Shown here: piece after piece, positions 3,608 through 55,665 of the stretch
How positions within the stretch are numbered: position 1 is the first letter of the stretch
How the letters are laid out: every line of letters begins with the position of its first letter
From: a virus
Taxonomy: Duplodnaviria; Caudoviricetes
IMG/VR virus record: IMGVR_UViG_3300037755_000790
Location: 1 to 57,730 of that record
Direction: 5' to 3' (one strand)
DNA length: 57,730 nucleotides
Program-made: the position numbers and the translations under genes
The notes under the pieces: generated by a model
The model's input: the letters and a program-made list of their open reading frames with translations, nothing else
The model's database searches: none
What the model was told of the DNA's origin: nothing

Positions 3608-3877
3608 TCAGGTGGGTCGTTGCTCGATGAGGTGCCAGACCAGAAACCCGCCGGGAGCCACGGCCGTACCGTGGTACCGGACACGACCGGCGGGCATCGG
3701 GTGGCCAGTCCCGACGGCGATGAACCGGTAGGCGGGACCGGGGGATTCGTCGTGGTGCCAAGCCCAGAACTCGACGACGCCGGTGTCGCGGCAGCCGACA
3801 GCGAGCGGGTCTGAGTGCAGCGTGAACTCGTGCGACTGGCCGTCGACGGGCACCTCGTAGCGGTAGATGGCGCTCAC
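3608..3877 (-). CDS. conserved small phage protein
   Basis: IYRY.VP...GTGH.....Y.GT......VWHL pattern. Confidence 0.7.
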   Translation of the reverse strand: MSAIYRYEVPVDGQSHEFTLHSDPLAVGCRDTGVVEFWAWHHDESPGPAYRFIAVGTGHPMPAGRVRYHGTAVAPGGFLVWHLIEQRPT

Positions 3878-4632
3878 GTCACACCACCCAGGGGCACGGC
3901 TCCCGGGCTGGCCGTCCCCAACCAGCCCGGGGCCGCCGGCGGGACGGTGTTCGGACCGTCCGCGCCAACCGCCGAGACGTCGCGAAACTCCACGGCGGGC
4001 ATCTGTTGGGCCACGGCCTCCGAGCCTCGGGGAAGAAGACTCGGGGCCGCGACCGTCTTGGGTGGGCGAAAGTCGCGGCGCTTGGCCTTCGCCCTACGTC
4101 CGTCGGGGTGGTGCCAGACGACGCCCTCCCACGCCTCGTGCCCGTGCAGCCATTCGCCGAGATCGTCGAAGCCCATCGGGATCTGATTGGCCACGCGTGA
4201 GTCGGTGGCGGACATGTATCCGTGGCGGATGAGCATGTGCTCGACCAGCTTCTCCGGATTGCCGTTGATCTTCGGTCCACACAGTTCATACGTGGCGCCG
4301 AGCACGGGGCCCGGGTAGGTGTCGACGACGCGCTTCAACGCCTCGTCGTGGAACTTGGCGAACGGCGACGACGTCATCGGCTCCCAACCGACGGTCTTGC
4401 CCGTCACGGAGTCGAGTTCGACGATGAGGTAGCCGGGCGGCTGGAGCTTGCCGGGCTTCACTTCGCGCCGAGCCCACCACTGCTGACCGTCGTACGACAC
4501 GCACGTCCCGTCGTACTTCCGCGTCGCTACGCCCTCGCCGGCGAACACCCACGCGCAGCCTGGGTGCCGCTTGCGGGTGACGTACTTCGGGTCCGCCTCG
4601 TCGCGGAGGTAGATGGTCGGGATCTTCCTCAT
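3874..4632 (-). CDS. RNA ligase-like nucleotidyltransferase (DUF5565-like)
   Basis: motif I TRKYDGT, YELCGPKINGNP, motif IV EGVVW, terminal KAK. Confidence 0.75.
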   Translation of the reverse strand: MRKIPTIYLRDEADPKYVTRKRHPGCAWVFAGEGVATRKYDGTCVSYDGQQWWARREVKPGKLQPPGYLIVELDSVTGKTVGWEPMTSSPFAKFHDEALKRVVDTYPGPVLGATYELCGPKINGNPEKLVEHMLIRHGYMSATDSRVANQIPMGFDDLGEWLHGHEAWEGVVWHHPDGRRAKAKRRDFRPPKTVAAPSLLPRGSEAVAQQMPAVEFRDVSAVGADGPNTVPPAAPGWLGTASPGAVPLGGVT

Positions 4633-4754
4633 GACTTCGTCACCCGCTTCCACGCACCTCGAGCGACAGCGGCGAGGACATATAGCGGCAGGAACATGGC
4701 CGTCACGGCGCAGACCGACCGCAGTCGGCGGCCGAGGGACTCTTCGGGCCTCAT
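4629..4754 (-). CDS. small membrane peptide
   Basis: ATGA overlaps at both ends; hydrophobic core. Confidence 0.45.
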   Translation of the reverse strand: MRPEESLGRRLRSVCAVTAMFLPLYVLAAVARGAWKRVTKS

Positions 4755-39512: not shown

Positions 39513-40348
39513 GACGCCACCCGCTCGTCCTCGTCGGCGCTGCGCCGCTCGGCTTCACGTTGCGCTTCGATGATCGCCTGCTGCGCCATGTACCGGTCAT
39601 ACGTCAACGAGAACGTCTTGATGTGACCGAGCTTCACGGCCGTGTTCACCCATATGGGGATACCGGCGAAGCCAGCCCGGAAGCAGAACGTGATGTCCTC
39701 GGACATGCGCCGGCCGTAGAAGTCCGTCTCCTGGAACCAGGGGTACGCGTCAGAGAACCCCACCATCCCCGGCCGCTTCGGGGTTCGGAAGTCCCGCACC
39801 CTCGCCAGCACCGACCGGTGGATCAGCAGGCAAGCCGCGCCGGTGGCGTGCACCTCGAACATGGAGTCCAGCGGAAAACGCTTGTAGCGGATGAACTCCG
39901 GCCGCTCCAGCGTACCGACCACGTCATAGAGCGTTGGCTCCAGTTCCGCCGTCTCCGACAGGGTGAAACAAAGGCCGCCGATGATCGGGGCCTTGTCCTC
40001 GTCGGCGAACTCGAGGAGCTTCTCCACGGTGTCCGGCTCGAACGTCATGTCCGAGTCCAGGAACAGCAGCCACGGCGCCGAGGAGTACTTCAGGAACTTC
40101 TCGCACACCTCGTTACGGGCCGCGCTGACGTTCGCTGAGGACACCTGCGACACGAACCCGCCTCGGCCACCGGTCACGTGCTTAGGGCCACGCGTCGACT
40201 CGTAGTCCACGAGGCCCAGGACGGACTCCATGAACTCACCGTTCACGTGACTCGGGCGCACCCAGGCCACGACGACTCCCTCAGCCTCCGCCTCGGCCGG
40301 CTCGTCGCACGCGGACGCGTCGGTGGGACTTACTTCCACTTCGGACAT
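39509..40348 (-). CDS. glycosyltransferase (GT-A, DxD)
   Basis: ARN....FL, LFLDSDM, G..CLLIHR.V, SEDI.FC, GHIK. Confidence 0.85.
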   Translation of the reverse strand: MSEVEVSPTDASACDEPAEAEAEGVVVAWVRPSHVNGEFMESVLGLVDYESTRGPKHVTGGRGGFVSQVSSANVSAARNEVCEKFLKYSSAPWLLFLDSDMTFEPDTVEKLLEFADEDKAPIIGGLCFTLSETAELEPTLYDVVGTLERPEFIRYKRFPLDSMFEVHATGAACLLIHRSVLARVRDFRTPKRPGMVGFSDAYPWFQETDFYGRRMSEDITFCFRAGFAGIPIWVNTAVKLGHIKTFSLTYDRYMAQQAIIEAQREAERRSADEDERVAS

Positions 40349-40457
40349 TAGGGACCTCCAGGTAGGCGGGGTTCCCGGACTCCTGGCGTCCGGGAACCCC
40401 TTCCCACAGGGGCGACCTGTGGGGCACGTCTCGCTCGCTCGGATGAGAAAAGCGAAG

Positions 40458-40463
40458 TACTAT
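40458..40463 (+). promoter_or_regulatory. -10 box for the pentamer-array cassette
   Basis: TACTAT in an AT-rich patch 11 nt before the first GGC unit; -35 weak (TCGCTC). Confidence 0.5.
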
Positions 40464-40474
40464 GAAGCGACGGG

Positions 40475-40587
40475 GGCGTGGCATGGCAAGGATGGCTGGG
40501 CCGGGCGCGGCATGGCAGGGCGTGGCAGGCGCGGCTGGGCGTGGGTTGGCGGGGCAGGGATAGGCGAGGCGTGGCCTGGCGCGGCCC
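40475..40587 (+). repeat. GGY-NN pentamer array A (putative guide RNA)
   Basis: 23 units, mostly GGC+NN: GT AT AA (A)T TG CG GC AT AG GT [A] GC TG GT TT GG AG TA GA GT CT GC CC. Confidence 0.9.
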
Positions 40588-40632
40588 ACAAAAGAAACAC
40601 TTCGAACCGAACGGACCCAGGGAGGGCTAGCA

Positions 40633-41181
40633 GTGAGCACAGATCAGCAGGTCTCCGACGACGAGACAGCCGTCGAGACCGAACAGGTCGCCGAGACGCA
40701 GCACCAGCAGAAGGAGCGACTCTCGGCCGAGGAACACGACGCGCTCGAACGAGTCGCGAAGGACGACGTTGACGGGCTCATCCAGCCCGAGATGGTGGTG
40801 GAGATGGCATCGGACCCGGCGTCGCCGCTGCACAAACACTTCGAGTGGGACGACGGCAAGGCCGCACACGCCCACCGGATCGCTCAGGCCCGGTACCTCA
40901 TCGCCCGTTACACGATCACCCGCATCGACGAGGGGCCGAAGTACGTCAACATCACGATCCGCAAGGACGACGGATCGTCGCGCCGCGGCTACGTCGCCGT
41001 GGAACGGGCCGTCGCGGACCCCGACCTCTGCGGCCAGATCATGGCCGACGCGAAGCGAGGGATCGTCGCCTACCGCAACCGGCTCTCGGCCTTCGAACGG
41101 TCACGAGCGGTCGTCGGAGCGCTGGATGAGGCCATCGGTCGCATCGACGAGGTCGTCCAGGACCTGAGCGAGGCGGCTTAG
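40633..41181 (+). CDS. partner protein of the RAMP-like cassette
   Basis: GGGAGG RBS; P..VV..A.DP.SPLH..FEWDD..AA..HR..QAR.LI motif. Confidence 0.8.
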   Translation: MSTDQQVSDDETAVETEQVAETQHQQKERLSAEEHDALERVAKDDVDGLIQPEMVVEMASDPASPLHKHFEWDDGKAAHAHRIAQARYLIARYTITRIDEGPKYVNITIRKDDGSSRRGYVAVERAVADPDLCGQIMADAKRGIVAYRNRLSAFERSRAVVGALDEAIGRIDEVVQDLSEAA

Positions 41182-41183
41182 CC

Positions 41184-41786
41184 ATGCCCGAGATCAGGCT
41201 GGAAGTCGTTCAGCGGGAGGTAATCGACGTCGAGATCATCGGCGTGAGTCCGCTGATCCCGCACAAGTGGTCGGAGAAGTCGCTCCGCATGATGCGCGAG
41301 TCGCAATCCGGCAGCAAGGCCCGCAAGAAGCACGACCCGAAGGTGCCGGTCGACGAGGCCGAAGGGGCGCTGTACCGGCTCGCCGATGGTCGCCCGGCGA
41401 TGCCGGCGACGGCCTTCAAGGCGGCCATGGTCGGCGCGGCCCGACTGTTCCAAGGCGTCACGATGACCGCGCTCAAGGCGGCGGTGTTCGTGCACGGCGA
41501 AGGATCGGACCAACTCGTCCCGATCGAGGGCGAGATGACGCTGCGGGAGGACACGCCGCGCAACGCGACCGGGGTGGCGGACCTGCGGTACCGGTACGCG
41601 TTCTGGCCGTGGCAGACCACGCTCCAGATCGAGTACCTGACCGCGATGGTCGACAAGGACTCGGTCGTCGCGCTCGTCGACGCGGCCGGCAACGGCGGAG
41701 TCGGTGACTGGCGGCCGTCGGCCCCCAAGTCGCTCACGGGGACGTTTGGAAGGTTCCGGGTGGCATCACTCGGCGCTGTGGGATGA
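41184..41786 (+). CDS. RAMP/Cas7-like protein
   Basis: first strand I.G.SPL, P..AFK.A...AA helix, R.R..F..W, and C-terminal Gly-rich loop AG.GGVGDWRP.....G.FGRF.V. Confidence 0.7.
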   Translation: MPEIRLEVVQREVIDVEIIGVSPLIPHKWSEKSLRMMRESQSGSKARKKHDPKVPVDEAEGALYRLADGRPAMPATAFKAAMVGAARLFQGVTMTALKAAVFVHGEGSDQLVPIEGEMTLREDTPRNATGVADLRYRYAFWPWQTTLQIEYLTAMVDKDSVVALVDAAGNGGVGDWRPSAPKSLTGTFGRFRVASLGAVG

Positions 41787-41793
41787 TCGCCCG

Positions 41794-41975
41794 GACGAGG
41801 CGTGGCCTGGCTGGGTAGGGCGAGGCTTGGCAAGGCCGTCAAGGCCAGGAATGGCGCGGCGGGCTTGGCGTGGTAAGGCATGGCACGGCGAGGCGGGGCT
41901 CGGTAGGGCGTGGCAGGCTAGGCGAGGCTGGACTCGGCACGGCATGGCGGGTCAGGGCGTGGAATGGCACGGTGC
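41794..41975 (+). repeat. GGY-NN pentamer array B (putative guide RNA)
   Basis: 37 units: GA GT CT TG AG GA TT AA [C] AA CA AT GC [G] TT GT AA AT AC GA GG TC AG GT [A] TA GA TG TC AC AT GG AG GT AT AC GC. Confidence 0.9.
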
Positions 41976-42009
41976 AGGCCCCGGAGTTTCGGCTCCGGGG
42001 CCTGCTTCG
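41974..42009. terminator. hairpin between array B and the convergent MCP stop
   Basis: GCAGGCCCCGGAG-TTTCGG-CTCCGGGGCCTGC, perfect 13-bp stem. Confidence 0.8.
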
Positions 42010-42012
42010 TCG

Positions 42013-43720
42013 TTATGCCAAGGCCGTGAAGGCCGGAGTGGTGTGCAAGGTCAACATTCTGAAAGCCGCTGGGTCGACCGTGTCTGCCCCCACGCGCCAG
42101 AAGCCATACCACCCGGCCTGGCCGGTCGGCCGCTGGTTCGAGCCCTTGACCATCGGCTCGTACATCATCGAGAACCCGATACGATCGACGATGACGTATC
42201 TCTCGAAGTTGCCAGCAAGCAAAATGTTGGCCGACGTGGTGACCACCGAACCCATGGTGCTGCACTCGTACTGCGGCTGGCCGAGAAGCAGCGACGGGAC
42301 GCCCATGCCCATCGACGCCCAGAACGCGCTGCCGCCACTGGTATCGAACTGGCGGACCAGATTGTAAATCGTTTTGTTCGCAATCCACGACGCCTTGCTC
42401 GCGTCACGAGGACGGAGAGCGTTGGCGACCCGGTACACGTCGCCGGACACGAACGCCGTGATAGTGGCGGACGACACCAGGGACGCGGTGACGGCCGCGA
42501 CAGCGGCGACGATGCCGCGGGGGATGGTCGCGCCGGTGTTCCCGGTCGCGAAGGCGGCCGCTTCCAGGTTGGCCTTAGCGTCGGCCATGAGCATCGACAG
42601 CTCCGACGCGAAGCCCGAATCGGCGAGAACCTCGTAGGAGCCGACAACCCAAGCGTCGGCCTTCTTGGGTGTGATCGTGGGCTGCGTGAAGGTCGGGGAC
42701 GCGTCGGCGGCCTCGGTTCCTTCACCGGTCCATTCCGCCGTGACGCCGGCGCTCGTGACGCCGTTCCAGTCATCGGTGACGATCTGCTTGACCGTCGAGA
42801 TGGACCGGATCGGGTCCTGTGTACCGGCGTTCGTGAGGATGATCGTCGGGTCGAGCGTAAACGGGACGAGATACATTGTTGTTACTCGATACCTTGCGGT
42901 ACCGGGCCCGGTCATTTCTGCCGGGCTCTGCATCTTTTCCATCGATGCAGATCGGACTATATCTTCAGCTCCAGTCCCGACCAGCTATACCGGCTGGGCG
43001 GACCTCTCGGAGTTGCCACGCGTGTAGTCTCTACGGACTCCCCGGTACGGGTTGCCTCGGTATTCCCCTGCTTTGGTGGGGTTCACCGATACAGCGCGGT
43101 TTATTACCTCCGGGTCACCCGCAGAGGACGGCCACTCGACCGCCGTTGGCGCCGGTGAGGGACAGGGCGGCACGCATGAGCTGCCCCGGGTACGTCCCCA
43201 TCGACTGCCAGTACTCCTCGAACTCGCGGTGGTACTCGTCCGAGCCCGTCATCAGCAGGTGGCGGGCGATGCCCGACGTCTGCGGTGACGGCTTGTCGAG
43301 CAGCCGCATGACGTGCTCACGACCCGCGTCGTCCATGTGGCCGGGTGCGATCTCGACGGCCTTCTTCGCCCGCGAGATCATGTCGGCTTTCGGTGCGAGT
43401 TCGGCCCGGACGACCTCGTAGTTGTCGTACGGGTCGACGGTCCGCATGATCTCCGGTCCCTTGCGGGCCAGAGCGGTAGCTCCGTCGCCGGACTCGCGGT
43501 GTGGGCTGGCGAGGACGGCGCTGCGGACAGCCTCCGCCTTCGTCTCCCACGCCTCGGCCTTGGTCCGCTCGGCCTCGAGCTGAGCGAACTCGTCGGGGAT
43601 CTCCTCGGAGCGGGCGATGTCGTCGTCTTCCCAGTCCTGCTTGTCGGTCAGCTCCGCCAGTTCGGCGCGGAGCACCTCCATGTCGGCGGCGTACTCCGCT
43701 GACGTCTTTCGCTTAGCCAC
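42013..43720 (-). CDS. HK97-fold major capsid protein (exons 43139-43720 and 42013-42873; 480 aa spliced)
   Basis: splicing restores NGG|YLVP; W.GE, LLG.P, GNF..Y.IVDRIG, R.G....DP.AF; N-terminal delta domain. Confidence 0.92.
42874..43138 (-). mobile_element. group I intron (265 nt, no ORF)
   Basis: P1 GGCGGU/GCCGUC with U.G at the 5' splice site; core elements GUAUCGGUGAA, AAUACCGAG, GUAGAGACUA, AAGAUAUAGUCC; terminal G. Confidence 0.92.
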
Positions 43721-44453
43721 GGGGGGCTTCCTTTCGGGCCAGCCACATGCGCGCTTGCGCACGGGCGAGGTAGTAGTCCCGGTCGGAGTGCCCGTTGGGC
43801 GGCTCTTCGGCGTCGGCGTCCATGGTGGACGTGACGGGATACGTCTCCGGCTCCTGTGGAGTGGTGGACGGTCTGAGCGCGGCGAACAGGTCCGTCACGC
43901 GTGAGCGGACGGCGAGGATCGCCGCGGCGGCGTTGACCGGTACGGGGGTGGGGCCGTAGTCGGACAGGCCGAGTTCGTGGCGGGTGACGGTCGGTAGGTT
44001 CCCGGTACGTCCCCGTGGTATCTGCGTCGGGGTCGAACGGACGATCTTGCCCCGGAAGGACTGGGACCGGATGGCGCCGTTGTCGATCGCCTCGAGGATC
44101 CGGTCGATCTCCGGGCCCCGGTTGTAGCGGGTGATCGTCTTGAGGCCCTTGGAGTCGGGGGTGATCTCCAGTGGTGTGCCGATCGGCACCGACCACGTGT
44201 CAGATGGCGATCCGTGGACCGTGAGTCCGTGGTTGTACAAGCACATGACCCTGGAGATCCCGCCGTCTTTCAGCGTCTTGTTGAACGCGGACCGTTCGAC
44301 GACCTCCATGTAGTGCCCGTGCTGGTCTTTGACCTCGTACGGGTGGTTGAAGACGGCGGCGTACGCCTCGACGGTGCGGCCGTCGGTGTGGGCGCGGGAG
44401 ATCTCGATGTCCTCCAGGGGCCACCAACGTTCGTAGCGAAGGATTTCAGCCAC
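43713..44453 (-). CDS. HK97-family prohead protease
   Basis: AYAAVFN, E.....AF.KT, LYNHG, QSFRG, L..YGP...P. Confidence 0.9.
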   Translation of the reverse strand: MAEILRYERWWPLEDIEISRAHTDGRTVEAYAAVFNHPYEVKDQHGHYMEVVERSAFNKTLKDGGISRVMCLYNHGLTVHGSPSDTWSVPIGTPLEITPDSKGLKTITRYNRGPEIDRILEAIDNGAIRSQSFRGKIVRSTPTQIPRGRTGNLPTVTRHELGLSDYGPTPVPVNAAAAILAVRSRVTDLFAALRPSTTPQEPETYPVTSTMDADAEEPPNGHSDRDYYLARAQARMWLARKEAPRG

Positions 44454-44474: not shown

Positions 44475-47400
44475 TCATGATGCGAAGACGTCGATGACGC
44501 AGCGGGTGGCCACTTCGGCGGACAGCAGCTCCCCGAGGTCGGGTGCTAGGCGGTCCTGGAGTACGGCCCACGGGGTGGGGGAGGTGGCCCACAGGTTCAG
44601 GCCGTCGCCCTCCGTCCAGAAGGTGAGGTCGGACCGGTAGGTCATCCGCCGCCGATGGGTGCGCCGAGCCGGGGTCGTGGGCGTCTTGGCGCGGGTCATG
44701 GCGGCCATGGACATCAGCGAGTCGGGTGGGTCCTCGTCCATCTCGCGATAGAGGGACACGATCTTGCGTGCCGCTGACCGCTTCTGATCAGCCGACGCGT
44801 CGACGGCGGACAGTCGGCCGGCGGCGGCGTGGACGCCGTTGCGGTTCAGCGTCCCGTCGGGCTCACGGACGGGTAGCTTGCACAGTTCCTTGCTGTACTC
44901 GTCCTGGCCTTCCGCCGGCTCATCGTGGATCAGGCACGCGGCTCGCCACTGCTCGTCGTCGTAGTCGGCCTGCGTGAACTGCGACCACGGGGTGTCCGAG
45001 AACGACCGGGACCGGTACTCCTCGTCGGGTTCCTCGCCCATCTCGGCCGCGTCCTCGACGTCCGTTTCGTCTTCTTCGCCGAGGGGGATGTCGGTCACCT
45101 CGTCGCCGAACGCGACCCGGATGTGGGTCAACGTCACCGGGCCGGCGAGGTCGACGAGGTCCTCGAGCTCGGCCGGGTCGTCGGTGTACAGCAGCGTGAT
45201 GTGCGGATGCCAGGGCGTGTGCTGGTCGGGGAGGTCGAAGTCCAGGTCGTCGATCTCGTCCTCGACGAGGGCATGGGCGGATGCCAGATCCTCACCGGAG
45301 ATGAGGAGGACGTCGCACGGCTCGTCGCCGTTGGGGTTGAACATGGCCAGCGAGAAACCGTCGACCTCGAGCACGTCTTCGAGGTCGTCGGCGACCGTCC
45401 GCGCGGCGTCGATGATGGCGGCACGCTGGTCCTCGTCGTAGTCGTCCGCCTTGCCGAGGAACAGGAGCGTGACGTGGAGCTGGTCGGCGTCCTCCCCACC
45501 TTCGACGGCGAGGCGTTCGAGGTCCGCCGGGGACGGGACGAGGGCGATCATCGCGCCGGTGTTCTCATCCGGGTACTCGGCGCGGGTGATGTCGACGTCG
45601 TCCGGATCGGTGATGGAGCGCTTCGCGTCGCGCTTGAGGAACTCATCGAGCGGAAGGGTGGAGACCAGATACCGGGATGCCGCCTGATGGCCGAGCCCGG
45701 CCGCGATGGCCTCACGGTACTTGTTCGGCCGGCCGTCGTTCGGGTCGGGCAGTTCGACAACCGCTCGGTGCAGAATCTCCTCTAGCCGTTTGGACGTCGG
45801 CGAGGCGACCCCGCGATTCCGGCTGGTCTCCTCATCGATGGCGCGCCCTAGTGCGGCGATGCCGGCCTCCGACCCGACGCCCTGCTGTAGCGCGTGGCGC
45901 AGGTCGAGTTGTGTCGGTTTGGTCAGGCCGTCTCCGCCGGAGAACGCCTTCACGCTGACGCCGAGCTCGCCGGACGTCGCCACCGTAGACGGAGCGGGCG
46001 AGTCGTTGTCGAGGATGGACTGGATGTCCGCCTCAAGTTGGCGGGTGACCGCCCAGTGCGCTGGTTCCTCCCACTCCTCCGGCGACGGCGCGTCGCCGGT
46101 TGTCTCCCGTGCTACCTGGAGTACCCGGTCCCGGTCGGTGCCGCCACCCGTCCGGGCCTGGTAGGCGTCCATCGACTGGAGGATGTGACGGATCCGCGCC
46201 TCGCGTGACCGTGCCGACGACGGGATCGGGGGGAGGTTCAGCGCGACGTTGATGCGCTTCAACTCGGCCGCGGACTTGGTGTGCAGGACCGTTTCGGCTT
46301 CGTCCATCGGGCCGCCGAGAACAGACTCGCGGGCCTTCGGGGCCGCCTTCGCCGGGGATGCCTTGGTGGGCGGGCCGCCCACGGCGTCGAGGCGGTCCGC
46401 GAGTTCGACGTACCTGTCGGCGCGGCCGAGAGCGCCCTGCCGGGTGCCCTGCCGGGGGCTGATCGACGCGACGGGCAGCCTGGCCGCGCCTTCGCGCATC
46501 CCGGCGGCTTCCTCGCGCAACGCGGCGGCAATGGACTTGGGGCTGTCGCCGTCGTCGAGTCGGGCCTGCACCTCGTCGAGTACGCCACGGTCGATGTCCA
46601 TGTCCTTGGCGATCTCGCGGGCGTTCAGACGCGGAGTGGAGTCCGATGGCGTCGTGGTGGTCTTCGGGGCGACCGCCTTGGTGGCAGCCTTCGCGACCTT
46701 CTTTGGCGCGGCCGGCTTGGCCGCGTCGGAAGCGAGGGCCCGCATGGCGACCTTGATCTGGTCGGTGTCTTTGTCCTGCTCGTCCTTCGGCAGCTCGGCG
46801 AAGGGGACGTCCAGATCCCCGCCGGCAGCCCAGTCGTTGCGTGACAGCCACGCCTTGTGGATCTCTTCGCCAACCTCCAGGCGTGTCTTCTCGTCGCTCA
46901 GGTCTACGGTGCCGCCGCGCTGCTTGAGGATGCGCTGGACGACTTCGCCGGCGGCCTTGTTCTCGGCCTGCCAGTCGCCGGGCAGATCGTCGTAGCTGGT
47001 GTTGGCGATGTCCACTTCATCGGAGTCGTGCGCGTCGATCCACTTCTGGTCCTTGGTCTTCTTGACGCGTGGCTCGAATGTCCCGTCCGCCTGCTTGCGG
47101 GTCTTGCGCCAGTCCTCATGCAACGCGTTGGCGATCTTGGCGGACTCGACCTGATCCGCACTCCCAGTCGACTTCTTGGCGGGCGTCGCCTTCTCCGCGG
47201 CGGGCCGCACCGTGTCGTGCGTCGCCGGAACGTTGCCGATGAACGTCTGATCCGGACGGTGTAAAGAGGGGCCGTCGATGTCCCATCCGCCGGGCAGACC
47301 ACGATCGCGGGCGAAGTGCTCCGCGATGTGGAGCTGCAGCGCGCTCTTGGCTTGCAAAATGCCCGGCGGGACGTCGATGCCCAGTCCGTCGGCGACCTTG

Positions 47401-47903
47401 CGGAGCTTCGCTGACGTGAGGCGCGTGTCGCCGCTCAGTAGCGCGATGACCTCGGCCTCGGACTGGGCCGCGGACACCTTGGCCACCGCGTCGGCCACCT
47501 CTACGGCGGCGGCCTGCTGGGCCTTCGTCTTCGCCGCCGGCTTGGCTTCTACCGCGGCCTTCTCCACCGACTTCTTCGCGGGCGCCTTCTTCGCCCCGGC
47601 GGCCTTCATCGCGGCCGGATGTGTGGCGCCCTTCACGCGCTCGGCCTGATACCGCTTCCGGTCATCTGGCGACAGGGCGTCGTACTGCTCCCGCTGCGGC
47701 ACGGTGAGCTTTCGCATGCCCGACGGGATGGTCACGCCGATCGCCAGCCCGTAGTGTGCCGCGCCCTCGGCGCTGATCACCTGCCGGCCGGGGGCCGGGT
47801 TGCTCCTCCCGCCACGGGCGCGCGCGATCTCGCCATCCATCCGCATCCGCACCAGCGCCATCCGCGCCACCGCGCGTGCCCGAGGAACCGTGGACGTGGT
47901 CAT
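44475..47903 (-). CDS. polyvalent head-associated protein with 2H phosphoesterase and RyR-repeat-like domains
   Basis: LHVTL and PHITL (2H); H..W...Y..LP / H..W...VPF.EL...EQ.KD repeats; CKLPV.EP.G.LNRNGVHAAA domain. Confidence 0.8.
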   Translation of the reverse strand: MTTSTVPRARAVARMALVRMRMDGEIARARGGRSNPAPGRQVISAEGAAHYGLAIGVTIPSGMRKLTVPQREQYDALSPDDRKRYQAERVKGATHPAAMKAAGAKKAPAKKSVEKAAVEAKPAAKTKAQQAAAVEVADAVAKVSAAQSEAEVIALLSGDTRLTSAKLRKVADGLGIDVPPGILQAKSALQLHIAEHFARDRGLPGGWDIDGPSLHRPDQTFIGNVPATHDTVRPAAEKATPAKKSTGSADQVESAKIANALHEDWRKTRKQADGTFEPRVKKTKDQKWIDAHDSDEVDIANTSYDDLPGDWQAENKAAGEVVQRILKQRGGTVDLSDEKTRLEVGEEIHKAWLSRNDWAAGGDLDVPFAELPKDEQDKDTDQIKVAMRALASDAAKPAAPKKVAKAATKAVAPKTTTTPSDSTPRLNAREIAKDMDIDRGVLDEVQARLDDGDSPKSIAAALREEAAGMREGAARLPVASISPRQGTRQGALGRADRYVELADRLDAVGGPPTKASPAKAAPKARESVLGGPMDEAETVLHTKSAAELKRINVALNLPPIPSSARSREARIRHILQSMDAYQARTGGGTDRDRVLQVARETTGDAPSPEEWEEPAHWAVTRQLEADIQSILDNDSPAPSTVATSGELGVSVKAFSGGDGLTKPTQLDLRHALQQGVGSEAGIAALGRAIDEETSRNRGVASPTSKRLEEILHRAVVELPDPNDGRPNKYREAIAAGLGHQAASRYLVSTLPLDEFLKRDAKRSITDPDDVDITRAEYPDENTGAMIALVPSPADLERLAVEGGEDADQLHVTLLFLGKADDYDEDQRAAIIDAARTVADDLEDVLEVDGFSLAMFNPNGDEPCDVLLISGEDLASAHALVEDEIDDLDFDLPDQHTPWHPHITLLYTDDPAELEDLVDLAGPVTLTHIRVAFGDEVTDIPLGEEDETDVEDAAEMGEEPDEEYRSRSFSDTPWSQFTQADYDDEQWRAACLIHDEPAEGQDEYSKELCKLPVREPDGTLNRNGVHAAAGRLSAVDASADQKRSAARKIVSLYREMDEDPPDSLMSMAAMTRAKTPTTPARRTHRRRMTYRSDLTFWTEGDGLNLWATSPTPWAVLQDRLAPDLGELLSAEVATRCVIDVFAS

Positions 47904-47956
47904 GCCACCCCCGAACATGGTTGAGCCCCGTTGGAGGCTGAGGAACGGAGGAAGGG

Positions 47957-48241
47957 TCAGTTGTCGAGTAGCTGGGTGACGCGGTCGATCTGCGCCCGGA
48001 CCCACGCGTCCGGGGCGTTGAGCCACGGACCCTCGACGAGTTCCAGCAGGATCGGGCCGCTCGCGTCCGGGTCGAGGCCCGCGCCGTGGTGGGCGAGTGC
48101 GTTGATCAGCGTCCCGATCAACTCGTACCGCTTGGTGCGGCCGGCGTACAGCGCGCCGTACAGCAGCCGGCGGGTCTCGTCGAGGTCCTTCGACTTCGAC
48201 GCGTCACGCGTCGTCAGCGTGTAGTCATCCCACGCGGCCAT
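47957..48241 (-). CDS. hypothetical protein
   Basis: GGGAG RBS. Confidence 0.6.
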   Translation of the reverse strand: MAAWDDYTLTTRDASKSKDLDETRRLLYGALYAGRTKRYELIGTLINALAHHGAGLDPDASGPILLELVEGPWLNAPDAWVRAQIDRVTQLLDN

Positions 48242-48541: not shown

Positions 48542-49057
48542 CTAGCCGGGGCCGATGAGTTTGCCGCGGGGTTTGCCGCCCTGGGCCACCCGATGGGCGT
48601 CGGATCCGGCCCACAAGCCAGTCACGCTGTGCAGCCACTGGGATGCCATGCGTTTAGCCCTGGCCGAGCCGACATGCCGACGCAGCAATCTATAGAGGGT
48701 TGTCCATTGGTGGCGGGACTTGATCCACCGTTTTAGTCCGGCCCCGTGGGTCCAGTACTCGCGGAGCTTGTACCGGTTCCCACCCATGGCCCGCAGGATC
48801 TCGTCGTCCTCGTCGAGACCTTCAGCCCGCGACAGTTCGTCGAGTAGCGCCTCATCCAACTCCGCCGCGAAGCCGTCGGCCGTCCAGCCGGAGGCGAGCG
48901 CGTCGAAGGTCCGGTCGTCGTCCCAGCCGTTCGCCGACTGCGCTGACCGGAACAGGTCCCAGCCGGGAGCGTCGAAGAACTCAACACCATCGTCGGTGGC
49001 CGCGATCGTGCCAACCGTGGCGCCGGTCGATGTCTCAACGATGGCGAGCCGGATCAT
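48542..49057 (-). CDS. head-associated protein (acidic N-half, basic LREYWT.G.G...W domain)
   Basis: ATGA-coupled to the portal gene. Confidence 0.7.
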   Translation of the reverse strand: MIRLAIVETSTGATVGTIAATDDGVEFFDAPGWDLFRSAQSANGWDDDRTFDALASGWTADGFAAELDEALLDELSRAEGLDEDDEILRAMGGNRYKLREYWTHGAGLKRWIKSRHQWTTLYRLLRRHVGSARAKRMASQWLHSVTGLWAGSDAHRVAQGGKPRGKLIGPG

Positions 49058-52000
49058 GGTCTACCCACCGTCCACTGGATGATCAAGTCGACCAGTTGGG
49101 CCTTCGTCGACTTCGACCCGTAGGCGATCTCCGCCGAGTCGGCTATGGCCTTGAGTTGGTCACGGGTCCCGGTGAGCATGGCGCGGGCGTCGTTGCGGCT
49201 CGTCGCAGTGCGGAGTTTCGCCACCGTGTCCGCTGGTGACTCGGTGGCCTTCGCGGCCTTGGTGGTAGCCACTGTGAACTGATCGCGGGACAGGTACTCG
49301 GTCGTACGACGCCCGTCCTGCGCGACCGCGTCCACCTCGTAGATGGCCTCGGCGCCTTCGCCGGTCACCGACCTGACCGTGCCCGAAGTGGCGTAGCTCC
49401 CGGCGTTCGGCTTGAGCGCCACACGGCTACCGACCAATGCGCTGGCTCCGGTGGCCTTTGCTGCTCGGGGTGCTCTCTTCGTAGTGGGGGGCGCGGGGGA
49501 CGCCTTGGTGGGTGCGGCCATGGACCGGAACTCGGCGACGAGTCGAGCCGCCGCGTCGGCGCCTACCTGTTCGCTGACACGGACGACCTCTTCGCTCTGG
49601 TCGCCGGGGAGGTCGGCCCACTCCTGCCGGTCGATGAGCCTCTTCGGCCCCGGTTCGCCGCCACTCACGGCTCGCCACACCGCCAACGCCACGTCCCGCT
49701 GACGGTCGAAGGCGATCACCGACTCCGGGCCGGCGGAGGTAGGGCCCTCGACGCGTTTAAGTGCCGCCTCGACATTGCGGCGGGTGAAGGCGCTCAGGTC
49801 CGGATTGGCCAGTTCGGCGCGCGCCACCTCGGCTTGCAGTGCGTTGTTCCTCGCCGCCGCCCGCGCTCTGGCGGCCGTCTCGATGGCCCATACCGCGGAC
49901 CGTGCGGCGTACTGCTGGGACTCGGGTAGCCGCTTGATCGCCGCGTCACCCGGAATACCGTTGGCCTTCTTCAGCTCCGCGCGCTCAGCCCGGATGGCCT
50001 CGTCCTGGCTCACGAGTCCGCCCGCCGCTTCGATGGCCGCGCGCATACGCGCCAACGACGCCGCGTGGCCGGCCCGGTCGAGTTCGGTTCCGTGGCTGTA
50101 CTCAGACTGCGACGGGAGCGCTTCCGCCGTGCGTCGTGCCGTGGCGGCGCGTTCGGCCAACGCGTTGAACGCCTCGGCCTCGTCGCGGTCGTCGGCGTTG
50201 GAGTCCGCCCACTGTCGCAGGTCCCGTTCAAGCCTCGTGAGGCCGGCCACGGTCGAGTCCTTGTTGTGAATCCACCCGGTAGCGGACGCGCGGTCAAGGT
50301 CTCGTTCGTGGCTGGTGAGGGCGCCGCCGAGTTGGGTCCGGGCCTGGGTGTTCATCTCGCGCAGCGGGTTGGCCGGCGTAGTGGGCGCCGCCTTCGCTGC
50401 TTTCGGGGCTCGTCCTGCGGCTACCTTCTTCACCGCGGGAGATGGAGAGGATGGCTCGAAGGTGAGTTCGCTGACGTCGGTCGGGTCGAGCTGTTGGCGT
50501 CGGCCGCCTTCCCAGTCGACGAAGATCTTCGTGCCGGTCCGTGTCACCTTGCCCCGGACGGGTTCCTCGCCGCGGGGCGCCCACACCGCCGTGTCCCCCG
50601 TCTTAACGTCCGGCAGCAGCCCCTTCGCCGAAGGGATCACCCTACGCGGTGGTGGGGGTAGCTTCGGTGCCGCCACGTAGCCCGACAGACGATCAGCGGA
50701 CACCATGCCGCCAGTGCCGTCCGCGAACTCGACCCACTGAGCACTGCCGCCGCCCGCCGTTCCGGACGGGTCACGGTCGTCGGGGCCAAGGTAGGTGACC
50801 TCACCCTTGGTGTCGTGGATCAGCTTGTCGCCCGGCTTCCAGCCCGACAGGATCTGAACATCCTTCGCGACGTGGCCGGTCAGCGCCTGCTTGGCTTCTC
50901 CTCCGTCTGGGGTACCGGGGACAGCGGGGAGTGGTGTCGGGGTACCGGGGAGTGGGCGAGGAGATGGGTCGTCGATCCAGAGCCAGTTCTTGTCCTGGCC
51001 ACCGATCCGAGCCGACGCGGCGCTCTGCTGTTCGTCGGGCATGCCGACCACCCGGTCCGGGGTCAGGTTCACGCCCGGCTGGACCATCATGCGCTTCAGC
51101 GCGGCATCTACCTCAGCCCTCGGCAGGTCCCTCAGTCCAGGCTCCGCACGGAGATCGGAAAGCAACACCGCGCCGGTGTCCCGAAGGTCGACGTTGGACA
51201 GCGGAGTGTGGGGTCGCGCCTTCAGCGCGGCGGCCGCCTCTCGGATACGGTTCTCTACCTGCACCTGACGTACGGCTGGATCACTCGACAGGGGCTCGTG
51301 GGCACCCTTCGGTGCTGGGTCGGCGTTCTCGATCGCGTCAGCCAAGCGCCGCAGCGTCTTGACGTCGTCGTCGCGGATCGCGTCAAGGTGCCGCTGTCCC
51401 GGCTCAACGTTGACCTGAGCCTCACCGGGCAGGATCGGGCGGCCTTCCAGCGCGTCCGCGGCTTGGCGCAGTCGCGCGGCGACGTCGCGCGGGTCCTTGC
51501 CGGTGCTGTATCCCCTACGCGCATCCCCGACCGCTTCTTGGCCGGGTCTGGTGAAGCCGTCGCTTTCCTGGCCGAGGAGCGCCCTGAACGCCTTCCGGCG
51601 CTGCGCCTGAACTGTCGGGTCAGCGGATACCTCTCCCGGCGTCGCGGTCTGCACGACGGCCTTCGCTACTGAGACCCGTTCCCCGTCGAGGTCTACGTCA
51701 TACCCTGGCCGCACCACCGTGACCTGCGTGCCGGACGGGATGTCCTTGCCGATGGGCTTGTGCCTGCCACGGTCGAACGGCTCCACGGCGCCCGCTGGGC
51801 CGGTGACGCGGTGCAGGCCATGCGCAGCTGCGATCCGGTCGATGGCCGCGTCTACCCGGGTACGGTCACCGGACGTGCCCGCCTGGACCAGGTCGTCGAT
51901 CAGCGCCGGGTCGAGGTTGTTGAGCTTCCCGCGGGTGCGGATACGGGACTCCATGGCCCTCGCGGAGGCGCCGTTGGAGGACAGTTCGTCGAGTTCGGAC

Positions 52001-55000
52001 AGTGTCTCGGCGACGCCACGGGCCTTGTCCGCTCGGACTTGACGCTCCCGTGCGGCGTCCTCCAACGGGTTGACGTCAACGTCCGCTACGGTTCCCGGTC
52101 CGACACCCGGCGTACCAAGATCAGCGTCGGTGTCGGGCTTGTCCGGGACGCCGCCCTTGCTCTTCAGCTCCGGGTGACGTTCGCCGTAGCGTCGCGCCCA
52201 GTCGGCCAGCTGCGTCTCGCCACGGTTCCTGGCCCATGCCTCAAGGTCGTCGAAGTCGTCGACGGTGACGACCCGCTTGTCCCGCGTCGCTGTCTTCGGC
52301 CCCGCCGAGCCGGTACGTAGCGTGGTGACCGCCACCTTGCCGTCGCGGGTGCCGTGGACGAGGACGTCCCGACGTGTTCCGTCCTCGTCGCGGATCGTCA
52401 GCAGCGGAATCGGCGCCTTGTCCGGGTCGGTCTTGTCGACCTTGCGGTACGACTCCCGCGCGTCGGCGAGCAACGCGTCTTTGATGTCGTCGATCGTCGC
52501 GCCCCGCCGGAGCTTGATTCCCGGCCGGCCCTGGGCGACCTTGCGCAGCGACTCGCGGTTCGTGAACTCGCGTAGCGGATCGTCGTCGCCTTCACCGCGC
52601 AGCCACCCGGCGAGGGCTGTCGCGACCCGTTCGGCGACGGTTCGGAACTTCCCCTCCCGGCCACGTGGGTGCATGGCCTCCTGCGCCGGCGTCCAACCAC
52701 GTGTCGCGTCGGGGATCGGGGTCTCGTCGCCGTCAACCTCGTCGAGGCTCTCGTCGGCGGGGACCGACTTGTGATCTTCGGTGATGTACGCCATGTCCCG
52801 CAGCGCCTGCGCCACATCCCGCGCGTCGGCGTCGGCGAGCTCTACCTCGTGGTCGCCGAAGCGGACCGCCACTCCACCCTCGTACGGTTCGCTGGCGAAG
52901 GAGTGGCGGGTGTACGGCTGACCGGACTCGATCGCGTCAGCCCAACGCCGCGCCTCAACAGCGGACGGGACAGCGTGGATCGCGACGTCGGAACCCGAGT
53001 CCGACTCGACGGTGACGTCCCGCTCCCGGGCCACGATCCGGGCCCGGTCGCCGAACTCGACCGAGTCGACCTCCCGGCCGTACTCATCGTCAACCGACTC
53101 CGCCGGCAGCAGCGCCAACGGTGTGGTCGGGATCCAACCATGGCGGTAGCGGTACCCGCGGGTGATCTCTTCGACGTGGTCCCACACCCACGCCAACGCC
53201 CGCGTGGACACGTCGTCCTCGACGGGCTCCGCGTCCGTCGGCTCTTCGTGGGCTGGTGTGCCGTCGGAGTAGACAGGCCCATCGATGACAGGCTCACCAC
53301 CCTCAGCGGGTGGGGTCAGCTGCACCGACGTCAGGCCGGTGTGGACGAGGACCGTGATGTCGTCGTTGTGGACCATGTCCACCGAAGACGCCGGCGTGAA
53401 CCCCTCACGGGTGAGCGACGCGATAACCGACGCCCGCGTCTGCTGGATCTCGGCGAGGTCCTTGGCGTCCTCGTGCAGGAACGGGATGTCACGGGCGTCG
53501 TACCAGAGCCGGTGCTTCGGCTCCGGCGGCGGGAACAGGACCTGAATCGACCCGCACCAGTTCTGCCACAAATCCCGCATCGTGGTGTCGACGAAGTTGC
53601 GCTTCGCCGACACGTAGTTGCCGGCGTTCAGGCTGGAGCCCTGCATGCCCTCGGAGAACGACAGCAGCGTCGGGGGAACCCCGCCGCGATTCGCGATGCG
53701 TGTGTTGTGCGTGGGTACGAGGCCCTCGCCCGCGAGGAAGAGGTGGTCGGCGGTATCAACCGCGATACAGCGAACCGGGACGGACGCGACGGGCTCGATC
53801 GAGACCACCGACCGGGACCACGTGGATGGGTCGCCCGCCATTTCGCAGCGATCAACCTTGCGCGGGAGCAGGAACGGGATCCGGTCCATCTCCACGCGGA
53901 ACGTGACGAGCCAGTGCTCGCCCGTACGGGACCTGGCGTCCGGCTTGCGACGTAGCGAGGCGCGGTAGCCGAGCGAGCGAACGAGTTCCGCCACCTGCCG
54001 GCCCAGTGCCTCAAGTTTGCTGCTGAACTGGCACTGCCCCTGCACGCCGACAGTGCCATCCGTGTCCATGAGACCGCGTAGAAGTTCCAGGCGCTGCGCG
54101 GCAGATCCGCGCAGATACCGGCCGGGGACGTGCTTGTTCCCCAGTACGCCCTCCGCGCGGAGGGCGTGGAGCAGGCCGCCGGGGACGCCGATCACGTCGA
54201 CCTTGTCGGCAGCCGTCGACCATGATGTCGTCGTGTAGCCGCGGGCTTCCAACTCGCAGGCGATGAACTTCAGATCATCGCGGGCGCCGCAGATCGCGGC
54301 TCCCGCGGTCTGGCCATCGCCCAGCCAAGCACCCAATACATACGGATCTATCAGCAAGTCGGCGTCCGGCAGTTCCAATACCGGCGTACGTGGCAGCGAG
54401 AAGCGGTGACCACCGACACCGTTGGGGTACGGAGCGCCGAGGATATCGAACATCTCCTGCGTGGAGTACACCCGCTCGGCACGGCTCGCGGTACCCCTGT
54501 CGGTCGCAACCCACAGGTGTGTGGCGTCAGCAACGATCGACGTACGGTCCTTGAGCATCACCCGGTAGCAGGCTCGGCCCTCATGGATCGGACCGACCTG
54601 AAGCACCGTCCCCGGCCGCCCATCGCGGCCCATGACCTGATCGCCAACACGGACCTCGCCCATCGTGGTCCAGCCGGTCGGAGTCGGAATCGGCGTGTTA
54701 AGCGCCAGAGGTTCGCCCTTGCCCTGGACCGCGGCGAAGTCCATCTGCCGCATGTCGCCGCCGATGACCGTCACGTCCGCCCCGCCGGCCGTGTACAGGG
54801 TCTTGCCCACGTTCGCCGGGCCTTTGTGGGCGGCGTCCATCGCGTCGACGAACTCTTTGAACTGGTCCGGGGTCATCTGCTGCGGCACCGAAACGGCGAG
54901 GTTAGGCGATGCTGAGTTCTCAAAATAGGTGACTTTGTGCTCGCTGGCCTGCCTGTCGGCCTGGACCTCGCGGACGATCGGCGTGAGCCACGACATGCCC

Positions 55001-55665
55001 CGGTACGTCGCGAGCGGGTCGGGGAGGTCGGAAATGAAGTGCGCGTACTCGCCGCGCAGGAACGGCACCGGGATACCCGAACCCGGCCCGCCTTCGGTGT
55101 AGGAGATCGCGACCTGCCGCCAGCCGACCTGAGCCGACCCCACCATCCGCGGCTCAAGGATGATCTCCACCCAGTCGGGGCGGAGGACAACCACCTCATC
55201 GTCGAGGACGACGAGGTAGGCGTTGCCGCCGAAGTCGGAGTACAGCAGGGAACGTTTCAGCAGGTCAGAGGTGGTGCCGCCCGGCCACGGGGTCCGTAGC
55301 AGGTCGAGCGACTCGTCGTCGTACAGGTCACCGGGCCGGCCGTTCTCCCGCATCTGGAACAACAACGGCGCCTGGCCGAACACCCGCAGCCGGTACGCCT
55401 CCACCGACGCGACCGGGCCGTCGCGGTACAGCATGCCCTCGACGTAGCCCTGGAAGCTGTTGCCGACCGGTTCGGCGGTCTGGCCGTTCTGGGTTGTGGT
55501 GACACCCTGCGCCCCGGTCGGGTACAGGTTCCCGCCGAAGCTCCAGGCGTCCTGCCGCCACGACAGGTAGTCCGACAGCGAGTAGGCCCGCTCAGCTGTT
55601 TTCCCGTTGGTGCCGAGGATCGGGACGTTATCCCCACGCCACGGTGCGAGTTGGAGGGTCATCAC
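49054..55665 (-). CDS. portal protein with intein and about 1400-aa C-terminal extension
   Basis: GNAY, LRPDW, RGMSW, YFEN.A.P, GE|TRIA...GVP portal motifs; follows terL. Confidence 0.88.
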   Translation of the reverse strand: MMTLQLAPWRGDNVPILGTNGKTAERAYSLSDYLSWRQDAWSFGGNLYPTGAQGVTTTQNGQTAEPVGNSFQGYVEGMLYRDGPVASVEAYRLRVFGQAPLLFQMRENGRPGDLYDDESLDLLRTPWPGGTTSDLLKRSLLYSDFGGNAYLVVLDDEVVVLRPDWVEIILEPRMVGSAQVGWRQVAISYTEGGPGSGIPVPFLRGEYAHFISDLPDPLATYRGMSWLTPIVREVQADRQASEHKVTYFENSASPNLAVSVPQQMTPDQFKEFVDAMDAAHKGPANVGKTLYTAGGADVTVIGGDMRQMDFAAVQGKGEPLALNTPIPTPTGWTTMGEVRVGDQVMGRDGRPGTVLQVGPIHEGRACYRVMLKDRTSIVADATHLWVATDRGTASRAERVYSTQEMFDILGAPYPNGVGGHRFSLPRTPVLELPDADLLIDPYVLGAWLGDGQTAGAAICGARDDLKFIACELEARGYTTTSWSTAADKVDVIGVPGGLLHALRAEGVLGNKHVPGRYLRGSAAQRLELLRGLMDTDGTVGVQGQCQFSSKLEALGRQVAELVRSLGYRASLRRKPDARSRTGEHWLVTFRVEMDRIPFLLPRKVDRCEMAGDPSTWSRSVVSIEPVASVPVRCIAVDTADHLFLAGEGLVPTHNTRIANRGGVPPTLLSFSEGMQGSSLNAGNYVSAKRNFVDTTMRDLWQNWCGSIQVLFPPPEPKHRLWYDARDIPFLHEDAKDLAEIQQTRASVIASLTREGFTPASSVDMVHNDDITVLVHTGLTSVQLTPPAEGGEPVIDGPVYSDGTPAHEEPTDAEPVEDDVSTRALAWVWDHVEEITRGYRYRHGWIPTTPLALLPAESVDDEYGREVDSVEFGDRARIVARERDVTVESDSGSDVAIHAVPSAVEARRWADAIESGQPYTRHSFASEPYEGGVAVRFGDHEVELADADARDVAQALRDMAYITEDHKSVPADESLDEVDGDETPIPDATRGWTPAQEAMHPRGREGKFRTVAERVATALAGWLRGEGDDDPLREFTNRESLRKVAQGRPGIKLRRGATIDDIKDALLADARESYRKVDKTDPDKAPIPLLTIRDEDGTRRDVLVHGTRDGKVAVTTLRTGSAGPKTATRDKRVVTVDDFDDLEAWARNRGETQLADWARRYGERHPELKSKGGVPDKPDTDADLGTPGVGPGTVADVDVNPLEDAARERQVRADKARGVAETLSELDELSSNGASARAMESRIRTRGKLNNLDPALIDDLVQAGTSGDRTRVDAAIDRIAAAHGLHRVTGPAGAVEPFDRGRHKPIGKDIPSGTQVTVVRPGYDVDLDGERVSVAKAVVQTATPGEVSADPTVQAQRRKAFRALLGQESDGFTRPGQEAVGDARRGYSTGKDPRDVAARLRQAADALEGRPILPGEAQVNVEPGQRHLDAIRDDDVKTLRRLADAIENADPAPKGAHEPLSSDPAVRQVQVENRIREAAAALKARPHTPLSNVDLRDTGAVLLSDLRAEPGLRDLPRAEVDAALKRMMVQPGVNLTPDRVVGMPDEQQSAASARIGGQDKNWLWIDDPSPRPLPGTPTPLPAVPGTPDGGEAKQALTGHVAKDVQILSGWKPGDKLIHDTKGEVTYLGPDDRDPSGTAGGGSAQWVEFADGTGGMVSADRLSGYVAAPKLPPPPRRVIPSAKGLLPDVKTGDTAVWAPRGEEPVRGKVTRTGTKIFVDWEGGRRQQLDPTDVSELTFEPSSPSPAVKKVAAGRAPKAAKAAPTTPANPLREMNTQARTQLGGALTSHERDLDRASATGWIHNKDSTVAGLTRLERDLRQWADSNADDRDEAEAFNALAERAATARRTAEALPSQSEYSHGTELDRAGHAASLARMRAAIEAAGGLVSQDEAIRAERAELKKANGIPGDAAIKRLPESQQYAARSAVWAIETAARARAAARNNALQAEVARAELANPDLSAFTRRNVEAALKRVEGPTSAGPESVIAFDRQRDVALAVWRAVSGGEPGPKRLIDRQEWADLPGDQSEEVVRVSEQVGADAAARLVAEFRSMAAPTKASPAPPTTKRAPRAAKATGASALVGSRVALKPNAGSYATSGTVRSVTGEGAEAIYEVDAVAQDGRRTTEYLSRDQFTVATTKAAKATESPADTVAKLRTATSRNDARAMLTGTRDQLKAIADSAEIAYGSKSTKAQLVDLIIQWTVGRP
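53704..54711 (-). mobile_element. class 3-type intein with LAGLIDADG endonuclease (336 aa)
   Basis: PLALNTPIPTPTGW start, HLW, LGAWLGDG, LRGLMDTDG, VRCIAV, PTHN|T. Confidence 0.9.

Follow-up and report, generated by a model that had tools for sequence, protein, structure and literature searches.

A first guide RNA of a VIPR system in a temperate actinobacterial phage, with predicted targets in the major capsid gene of its lineage

The DNA stretch at 40475–40527 is the first guide RNA (vrRNA A1) of a VIPR (Viral Interference Programmable Repeat) system, and its carrier, assembled from a sediment metagenome, is a temperate actinobacterial phage. We consider it likely that this system, A1 included, is directed at the major capsid gene, probably that of the relatives of the phage. 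VIPR systems were described in three bioRxiv preprints (10.64898/2026.04.26.720920, 10.64898/2026.04.26.720927 and 10.64898/2026.10.15.759431) as being composed of a phage-borne RAMP protein, Vipr, an accessory component, vap, and vrRNAs of 9–16 GGY/NN units. According to the same preprints, the NN pairs recognise double-stranded DNA with one base, mostly the wobble base, being skipped per pair; the systems act on either strand and without a PAM, and their natural targets are located in competing phages and satellites. The examples studied there are those of Escherichia phage SUSP1 and of a Pseudomonas fulva prophage (type II), and 667 VIPR systems have been classified (10.64898/2026.04.26.720920).

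The cassette and its two genes

The window, meaning the whole stretch of 57,730 nucleotides that was analysed, encodes a terminase, a portal-like protein, a prohead protease, an HK97-type capsid, tail genes and an integrase. We identified on its plus strand, at approximately 40430–42012, a cassette composed of array A, a vap-like gene, the vipr gene, array B and a hairpin (Table 1). The two plus-strand genes between the arrays stand inside an otherwise minus-strand block, and array A sits where two diverging genes are 284 nt apart. When compared with L008, the single capsid relative that IMG/VR yielded, the cassette is an insertion of approximately 1.6 kb between the capsid stop codon and two hairpins that precede the glycosyltransferase gene. 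These two hairpins and gcctacctggagg, before the glycosyltransferase start codon (window 40349–40430; L008 2357–2444), are common to both genomes. Since the flanking hairpins are conserved in L008, the cassette seems to have been inserted as a discrete unit, together with a hairpin of its own (41977–42002). No GGNNN arrays were present within 2–3 kb downstream of the capsid gene in the capsid loci of 33 relatives.

Table 1. Features of the cassette, of the capsid gene and of the guide matches in the carrier genome (positions in the window)
Feature	Position	Strand	Description
vrRNA guide A1 (predicted)	40475–40527	+	10 GGYNN units + junction unit GGCA(G)
vrRNA guide A2 (predicted)	40528–40587	+	12 units
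vap-like accessory gene	40633–41181	+	182 aa, phrog_15946, SPLHxxFEWDD motif
vipr gene	41184–41786	+	200 aa, phrog_4652, single-RRM RAMP, G-loop GVGDWRP
vrRNA guide B1 (predicted)	41799–41861	+	13 units, two irregular (GGCC and GTCAA)
vrRNA guide B2 (predicted)	41862–41915	+	10 units + junction GGCA(G)
vrRNA guide B3 (predicted)	41916–41975	+	12 units
G+C-rich hairpin	41977–42002		between array B end and capsid stop codon; seen in sequence
Capsid exon 2	42013–42873	−	HK97-fold major capsid domain; Pfam Phage_capsid, E 7e-39
Own-genome B3 site	42236–42270	−	capsid exon 2, YECSTMGSVVTT
Own-genome A2 site	42620–42654	−	capsid exon 2, AWVVGSYEVLAD
Own-genome B2 site	42830–42861	−	capsid exon 2, FTLDPTIILTN, 12 nt past 3' splice site
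Group I intron	42874–43138	−	265 nt, without ORF
Capsid exon 1	43139–43762	−	N-terminal scaffold-like (delta) part, ends ...TGANGG; L008 residues 3–193
Own-genome A1 site	43248–43279	−	capsid exon 1, codons TSGIARHLLMT, 15/22

A profile constructed from 52 homologues of the vipr product matched PDB entry 36pp_D, 'SUSP1 Vipr protein', with an E value of 2.1e-12 and with the shared motif GVGDWRP...FGRF, in an alignment limited to the C-terminal 60–70 residues. The AF2 model of the product has a pLDDT of 92, and its top Foldseek matches are Csm3/Cas7 proteins, with 91 matches at E ≤ 1e-3. The family is large: in a library clustered at 50%, 2762 representatives were recovered at E ≤ 1e-3. Among GenBank phage records, 34 contain a homologue. 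The accessory protein (AF2 model with a pLDDT of 82) gave nothing in a PDB sequence search and no Foldseek match at E ≤ 1e-3, winged-helix proteins being observed only among the weak rows; VIA-align recovered only the C-terminal helical hairpin, with Z values as for unrelated helical proteins. Neither the PDB sequence searches nor the fold searches link it to any published Vap. No Pfam family was above cut-off for either the 182-aa or the 200-aa protein.

Homologues of the vipr gene were inspected in six phage loci, from Mycobacterium (Saal and Brocalys), Gordonia (ODay and Pipp) and Pseudomonas (LESphi2) phages and from the cyanophage Cy-LDV1, and GGCNN arrays adjoin the gene in all six. A phrog_15946 partner is present beside vipr in four of five other phages (Saal, ODay, Pipp and Cy-LDV1), being absent from LESphi2. 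Some of this array DNA has been annotated as coding: Pipp gene 43 (L003 3611–3880) is a GenBank protein-coding call wholly inside a GGCNN array, and Saal gene 51 (L001 2833–3000, 5' part) has an annotated start approximately 170 nt upstream of the Vipr-family homology and overlaps the array. In LESphi2 (L005 2030–2497), the GGCNN runs are parted by approximately 60–100 nt of non-repeat DNA, which recalls the published type II tailed guides and differs from the abutting guides at the actinophage and cyanophage loci.

Elsewhere in the window, a 1183-aa ORF (44475–48026, minus strand), located between a large ORF and the prohead protease gene, has a LigT/2'-5' RNA-ligase-like domain, and a second gene of an RNA-ligase family is present at 3874–4653 (minus strand). 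A 2203-aa ORF (49054–55665, minus strand) matches portal and terminase-family PHROGs. A search of the whole window against Rfam gave nothing at gathering level.

Guide arrays and their junctions

The two GGCNN arrays are both on the plus strand: array A (40475–40587) has 23 units, of which 20 start with GGY, and array B (41799–41975) has 36, of which 31 do so (51/59 in total). Units of 4 nt (GGCA, GGCG) split array A into two and array B into three, giving five guides of 11–13 units (Table 1), and the local matches of the arrays in the window respect these internal borders. The segment that the first-pass annotation had singled out in array A, and had suggested to be a possible discrete guide, corresponds exactly to guide A1; its 3' end coincides with the conserved 4-nt junction GGCA|GGC at 40524, which is consistent with a predicted guide of its own. 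The letters of A1 are GGCGT GGCAT GGCAA GGAT GGCTG GGCCG GGCGC GGCAT GGCAG GGCGT GGCA, and its NN string is GT AT AA AT TG CG GC AT AG GT (AG); that of A2 is GC TG GT TT GG AG TA GA GT CT GC CC.

There is no structured tail between the guides, which abut through the 4-nt junction GGCA|GGC, and a hairpin is present only after array B. Judging from its sequence, this hairpin (41977–42002) is probably a two-way terminator; a consensus promoter and terminator scan of 40200–42100 returned none of either and did not call it. A TACTAT motif was noticed by eye approximately 10 nt upstream of array A.

The junction GGCAGGC recurs, mostly at a spacing of 5n-1, in the arrays that adjoin homologous genes (59 and 59 nt in Saal; 54, 53, 54 and 54 nt in Pipp; 49 nt in ODay; 39–59 nt in Cy-LDV1), the exceptions being the one 53-nt interval of Pipp and spacings of 14 and 19 nt at close junction pairs in Brocalys and Cy-LDV1. 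This mostly 5n-1 spacing is consistent with the 'staggered arrays' with a 1-nt guide overlap that the legend of fig. S18 of one VIPR preprint (10.64898/2026.04.26.720920) mentions, with no experiments on them.

The capsid gene is split by a group I intron

The first-pass annotation had named the ORF in which it placed the A1 match 'capsid exon 1', and the alignment with L008 and Rfam show this label to be right, since ORF 43115–43762 is the N-terminal part of the capsid gene before a group I intron. L008 has an uninterrupted capsid ORF of 480 aa, whose capsid domain is 80% identical to that of the carrier; its residues 3–193 align to ORF 43115–43762 and its residues 195–479 to the capsid ORF 42013–42942. 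The intron borders were placed by comparison with L008, which lacks the intron, and by reading the sequence, and splicing is predicted: exon 1 ends at 43139 (...AAC GGC GGU), the intron, 43138–42874, ends in G, and exon 2 continues in frame from 42873. As read from the sequence, the GGCGGU at the end of exon 1 can pair with GCCGUC (P1 helix), with a U.G pair at the splice site. Rfam Intron_gpI matches 42928–43148 over the full model, with an E value of 7e-9; its score, 40 bits, does not reach the gathering threshold of 50. ORF 43115–43762 belongs to no family of its own and had no tblastn match in GenBank phages.

The A1 and B2 sites are separated by 418 nt in the carrier versus 153 nt in 29 of 30 relatives. 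In one relative, L040 (a Pseudonocardiaceae MAG, ~1040–2000), the same codon is interrupted by 967 nt of inserted DNA, which gives partial matches to Intron_gpI and contains an ORF of 247 aa, rich in cysteine and histidine, that may encode a homing endonuclease; no insertion is present at the intron site in the remaining 29 of the 30.

Guide matches in the carrier genome

Both arrays were scanned against both strands of the window, with the NN pairs laid on a 3-base period. Eight local matches scored at least 12, versus a shuffle mean of 2.28, and four of the eight fall in 42013–43762, which is 3% of the window; among 150 shuffles, this region received no match in 145 trials, one match in five and never two or more. 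The four capsid sites belong to A1, A2, B2 and B3, with two sites per strand, and at all four the skipped bases are codon position 3. It is the 1-base skip alone that lifts A2, B2 and B3 above background in the own genome (Table 2), and the same holds for A1 in the relatives. For guide B1, nothing above shuffles was observed in the window or in the capsid loci of the 33 relatives.

For A1, the first-pass annotation had reported 15 of 20 bases and 6 of 10 dinucleotides in agreement at 43248–43276 (plus strand) with one base skipped per pair, in a register that spares the wobble bases of the minus-strand capsid ORF and is shared with the sites of three further segments in the same gene. We recovered exactly these counts; the bases skipped by A1 are indeed codon position 3 of that ORF, and the A1, A2, B2 and B3 sites are all wobble-aligned in the capsid gene. 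The every-third-base skipping, which had been deduced from the sequence alone, is in fact the published VIPR code. Read on the sense strand, A1 gives L-T-L-I-A-R-H-(I/M)-(F/L)-(I/M)-T.

As evidence on its own, the match of A1 to the gene of the carrier did not stand, being at chance level and poorer than that of 29 of 30 relatives. It was said that better random matches elsewhere would count against it: the site is the best match of the 10 units in the window on both strands, but 23 of 300 unit-order shuffles reach a score of at least 15 at some position in the window. When A1 is read as 11 units, counting the junction unit, its own score of 15/22 is that of chance shuffles (Table 2), and a control skipping two bases gave 16/22 in the own genome, above the 15/22 of the 1-base skip. 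Despite this chance-level score, we take the A1 match as real on account of the sister guides, the VIPR cassette and the sites of the relatives.

Outside the capsid gene, a second 19/24 match of A2 was observed at 53698–53732 (plus strand), inside the 2203-aa ORF, with 7 of 12 units perfect. Its skipped bases are at codon position 1, outside the wobble register, and this match is probably due to chance. A G-quadruplex tract and a centromere of short repeats of the plasmid type were considered for the arrays, together with a TRAP-like docking platform, and were dropped, the NN strings being informative.

The capsid genes of relatives as targets

We gathered capsid loci from 33 relatives (one from IMG/VR, 27 from metagenomes and five from actinobacterial MAGs), whose capsid domains are 64–84% identical to that of the carrier. 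In all relatives in which the respective site is present, guides A1, A2, B2 and B3 match the homologous codons (Table 2).

Table 2. Guide scores in the capsid gene of the carrier and in those of the relatives
Guide	Own score	Shuffles reaching own score (of 500)	Best score in relatives	Shuffles reaching best score (of 500)	Relatives higher / equal / lower than own	Relatives with the site
A1	15/22	255	18/22 (L012, L035); range 15–18 of 22 in 30/30	2	29 / 1 / 0	30
A2	19/24	4	22/24 (L016, L017, L036; first 11 units perfect)	0	24 / 4 / 5	33
B2	18/22	0	20/22	0	8 / 17 / 6	31
B3	18/24	5	21/24	0	5 / 5 / 12	22

The gapped search in capsid homologues, which had been proposed as a check of the A1 match, recovered the predicted residues. 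Where the carrier has TSGIARHLLMT, most relatives have APLIARHMLLT and two of them, L012 and L035, have APLIARHMLMT; in these two, the A1 core has eight perfect units out of nine, the remaining one reading TT versus CT, both of which belong to leucine codon families. A perfect A1 target was found in none of the 33 loci, and exact-pattern scans of IMG/VR gave no matches for the 9-unit core of A1 and none for 11 units of B3.

Since the A1 site is matched better by 29 of 30 relatives, the likely targets are rival relatives, and the own capsid gene is less likely to be the true target of A1 than a homologue of it that is spared. The separation between self and non-self is not a clean one. One VIPR preprint (10.64898/2026.04.26.720920) uses a cut-off of 80% of NN bases for calling targets and reports no self matches at that level in the sets tested, and another (10.64898/2026.10.15.759431) describes that guides against the vrRNA loci of rivals score lower on their own locus. 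In the carrier, the own matches of A2 (19/22 over its first 11 units) and B2 (18/22) are above that 80%, and B2 and B3 match self like most relatives, which counts against a clean self/non-self split. The own gene matches 68–82% of the guide bases (86% for the first 11 units of A2), and the relatives up to 92% (100%); this spread offers a test case for mismatch tolerance.

An excess of recoding in the own lineage at the positions read by the guides was considered and rejected: approximately 3 of 35 capsid-domain codons differ from the closest relatives, which is not above the overall protein divergence of 20%, and therefore no such excess is claimed. As an anecdote, at 42259–42261 (minus strand), in the B3 site, the serine codon of the carrier is AGC, whereas TCN is used by 22 of 22 relatives; TC is also the reading of the guide.

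Proposed explanation and its alternatives

By analogy with the published VIPR work, Vipr protomers would align along the RNA, one per GGYNN unit, holding the GGY bases and exposing the NN pairs, which would bind double-stranded DNA with every third target base skipped, and transcription would be blocked. All steps, from guide transcription and processing to filament assembly, DNA binding and silencing, are modelled here on the VIPR preprints. Because the base skipped is the wobble base, the letters read by a guide are those that determine the protein, and A1, A2, B2 and B3 would thus spell conserved capsid stretches of this phage lineage. Since the agreement with A1 and A2 is closer in the relatives than in the carrier, we infer that it is the capsid gene of relatives that would be silenced: the system may act on co-infecting or superinfecting relatives and spare the own copy. 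To a more specific version of this proposal, a 'kin-directed' VIPR whose cassette was inserted beside the capsid gene and four of whose five guides read the version of the relatives, the own copy differing, we give even chances.

That the guides are instead meant for the own capsid gene, with the late structural operon being silenced in the lysogen, or timed, and mismatches being tolerated, seems unlikely. The cassette directly adjoins the capsid gene, and the presence of an integrase means that a lysogenic state exists; moreover, the own matches of A2 (over its first 11 units), B2 and B3 beat the shuffles and are near or above the cut-off used in print for targets. However, the relatives score above self for A1 (29/30) and for A2 (24/33), and over 11 units A2 has no mismatch in three relatives, versus three mismatched bases in self. 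Self-regulation also fits poorly with the other phages: the cassettes of Saal and others are far from their capsid genes, and the array of Saal, when compared with Saal bases 1–50000, reaches a top score of 12, within the shuffle range. The natural targets published are competitors, and the sets tested had no self matches (10.64898/2026.04.26.720920).

We consider it improbable that A1 is a genuine VIPR guide whose capsid match is a coincidence, its true target being another gene or element. The chance-level own score, a best score of 18/22 in relatives, the two units at the 3' end that are unmatched in 30 of 30 relatives and the lack of an exact match in IMG/VR would all be expected in that case. 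The coincidence would nevertheless have to involve the same homologous codons in all 30 relatives, with a best score that 2 of 500 shuffles reach, and L012 and L035, in which a single core unit departs from A1 by a swap between leucine codon families, and it would have to befall a guide with three sister guides aimed at the same gene. A capsid-directed A1, probably acting against relatives, thus remains the reading that we prefer.

Comparison with known systems

TRAP is an 11-mer ring, unrelated to RAMPs, that binds (G/U)AG repeats with spacers of 2–3 nt carrying no information. The arrays described here resemble its binding sites in having a fixed triplet followed by a short spacer, approximately 11 repeats, and one subunit for each; they differ in that the spacers (NN) carry information and in that the protein is a RAMP. 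A periodic docking platform or decoy of this kind, on which an oligomeric RNA- or DNA-binding protein would assemble with the NN pairs as free spacers, would account for the layout of fixed triplet and 2-base spacer, but it is very improbable given that three guides here, and four in the relatives, beat the shuffles under the 1-base-skip rule only, and that the protein is a Vipr homologue.

With class 1 CRISPR-Cas systems (Cas7/Csm3 filaments on crRNA), the cassette shares the RAMP fold and, by analogy with the published VIPR systems, protomers that would polymerise on a guide and a thumb that would withhold bases periodically; it differs from them in its 5-nt period, versus 6 nt, in the gapped reading of the target and in having guides hard-wired in the phage genome. 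The tandem-repeat scan gave no repeat-spacer array, the lone RAMP is vipr, with no other cas genes, and no acquisition module was seen in the phage genome.

The closest likeness is with VIPR itself: a phage two-gene cassette, a Vipr-family RAMP of approximately 200 aa and GGY/NN guides of 11–13 units flanking the genes, which, as far as their letters can tell, read two bases and skip one on the wobble, on both strands, in sequences of relatives. Unlike the type II VIPR guides, each of which is capped by an invariable structured 3' tail (in SUSP1, a pseudoknot), the guides here are tail-less and abutting. The Vipr of this phage is distant from that of SUSP1, and its accessory protein matches nothing solved. 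The targets also differ: satellite recombinases, prophage regulators and rival vipr genes are what the VIPR preprints give as natural targets, whereas those predicted here are in the major capsid gene of the lineage to which the carrier belongs, and two guides match the own gene at more than 80%. The word 'capsid' is absent from the main text of 10.64898/2026.04.26.720920; in the VIPR texts consulted, data tables aside, no natural guide set against a major capsid gene was found, 'major capsid' appearing in a methods sentence only. One supplement text file of 10.64898/2026.04.26.720920 names no Mycobacterium phage, Gordonia, Saal, LESphi2 or Cy-LDV1. Both this kind of system and its code have already been published, and the present case leaves the mechanism unchanged.

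Implications

The VIPR code can be read directly from a metagenomic phage genome, in which it singles out a definite gene, the major capsid gene of the lineage, as target; the natural targets of VIPR would thereby come to include an essential structural gene. The case also places tail-less, abutting guide arrays in actinobacterial phages, including sequenced Mycobacterium and Gordonia phages, in which the array DNA is partly annotated as protein-coding. If the kin-directed reading is true, capsid genes would be a class of natural VIPR targets not yet in print. If the mismatches of the own gene suffice for escape, the system would be a weapon against the nearest kin in mixed infection or in the superinfection of a lysogen; if they do not suffice, the phage would be dampening the expression of its own capsid gene, and VIPR would have a new use, in regulation.
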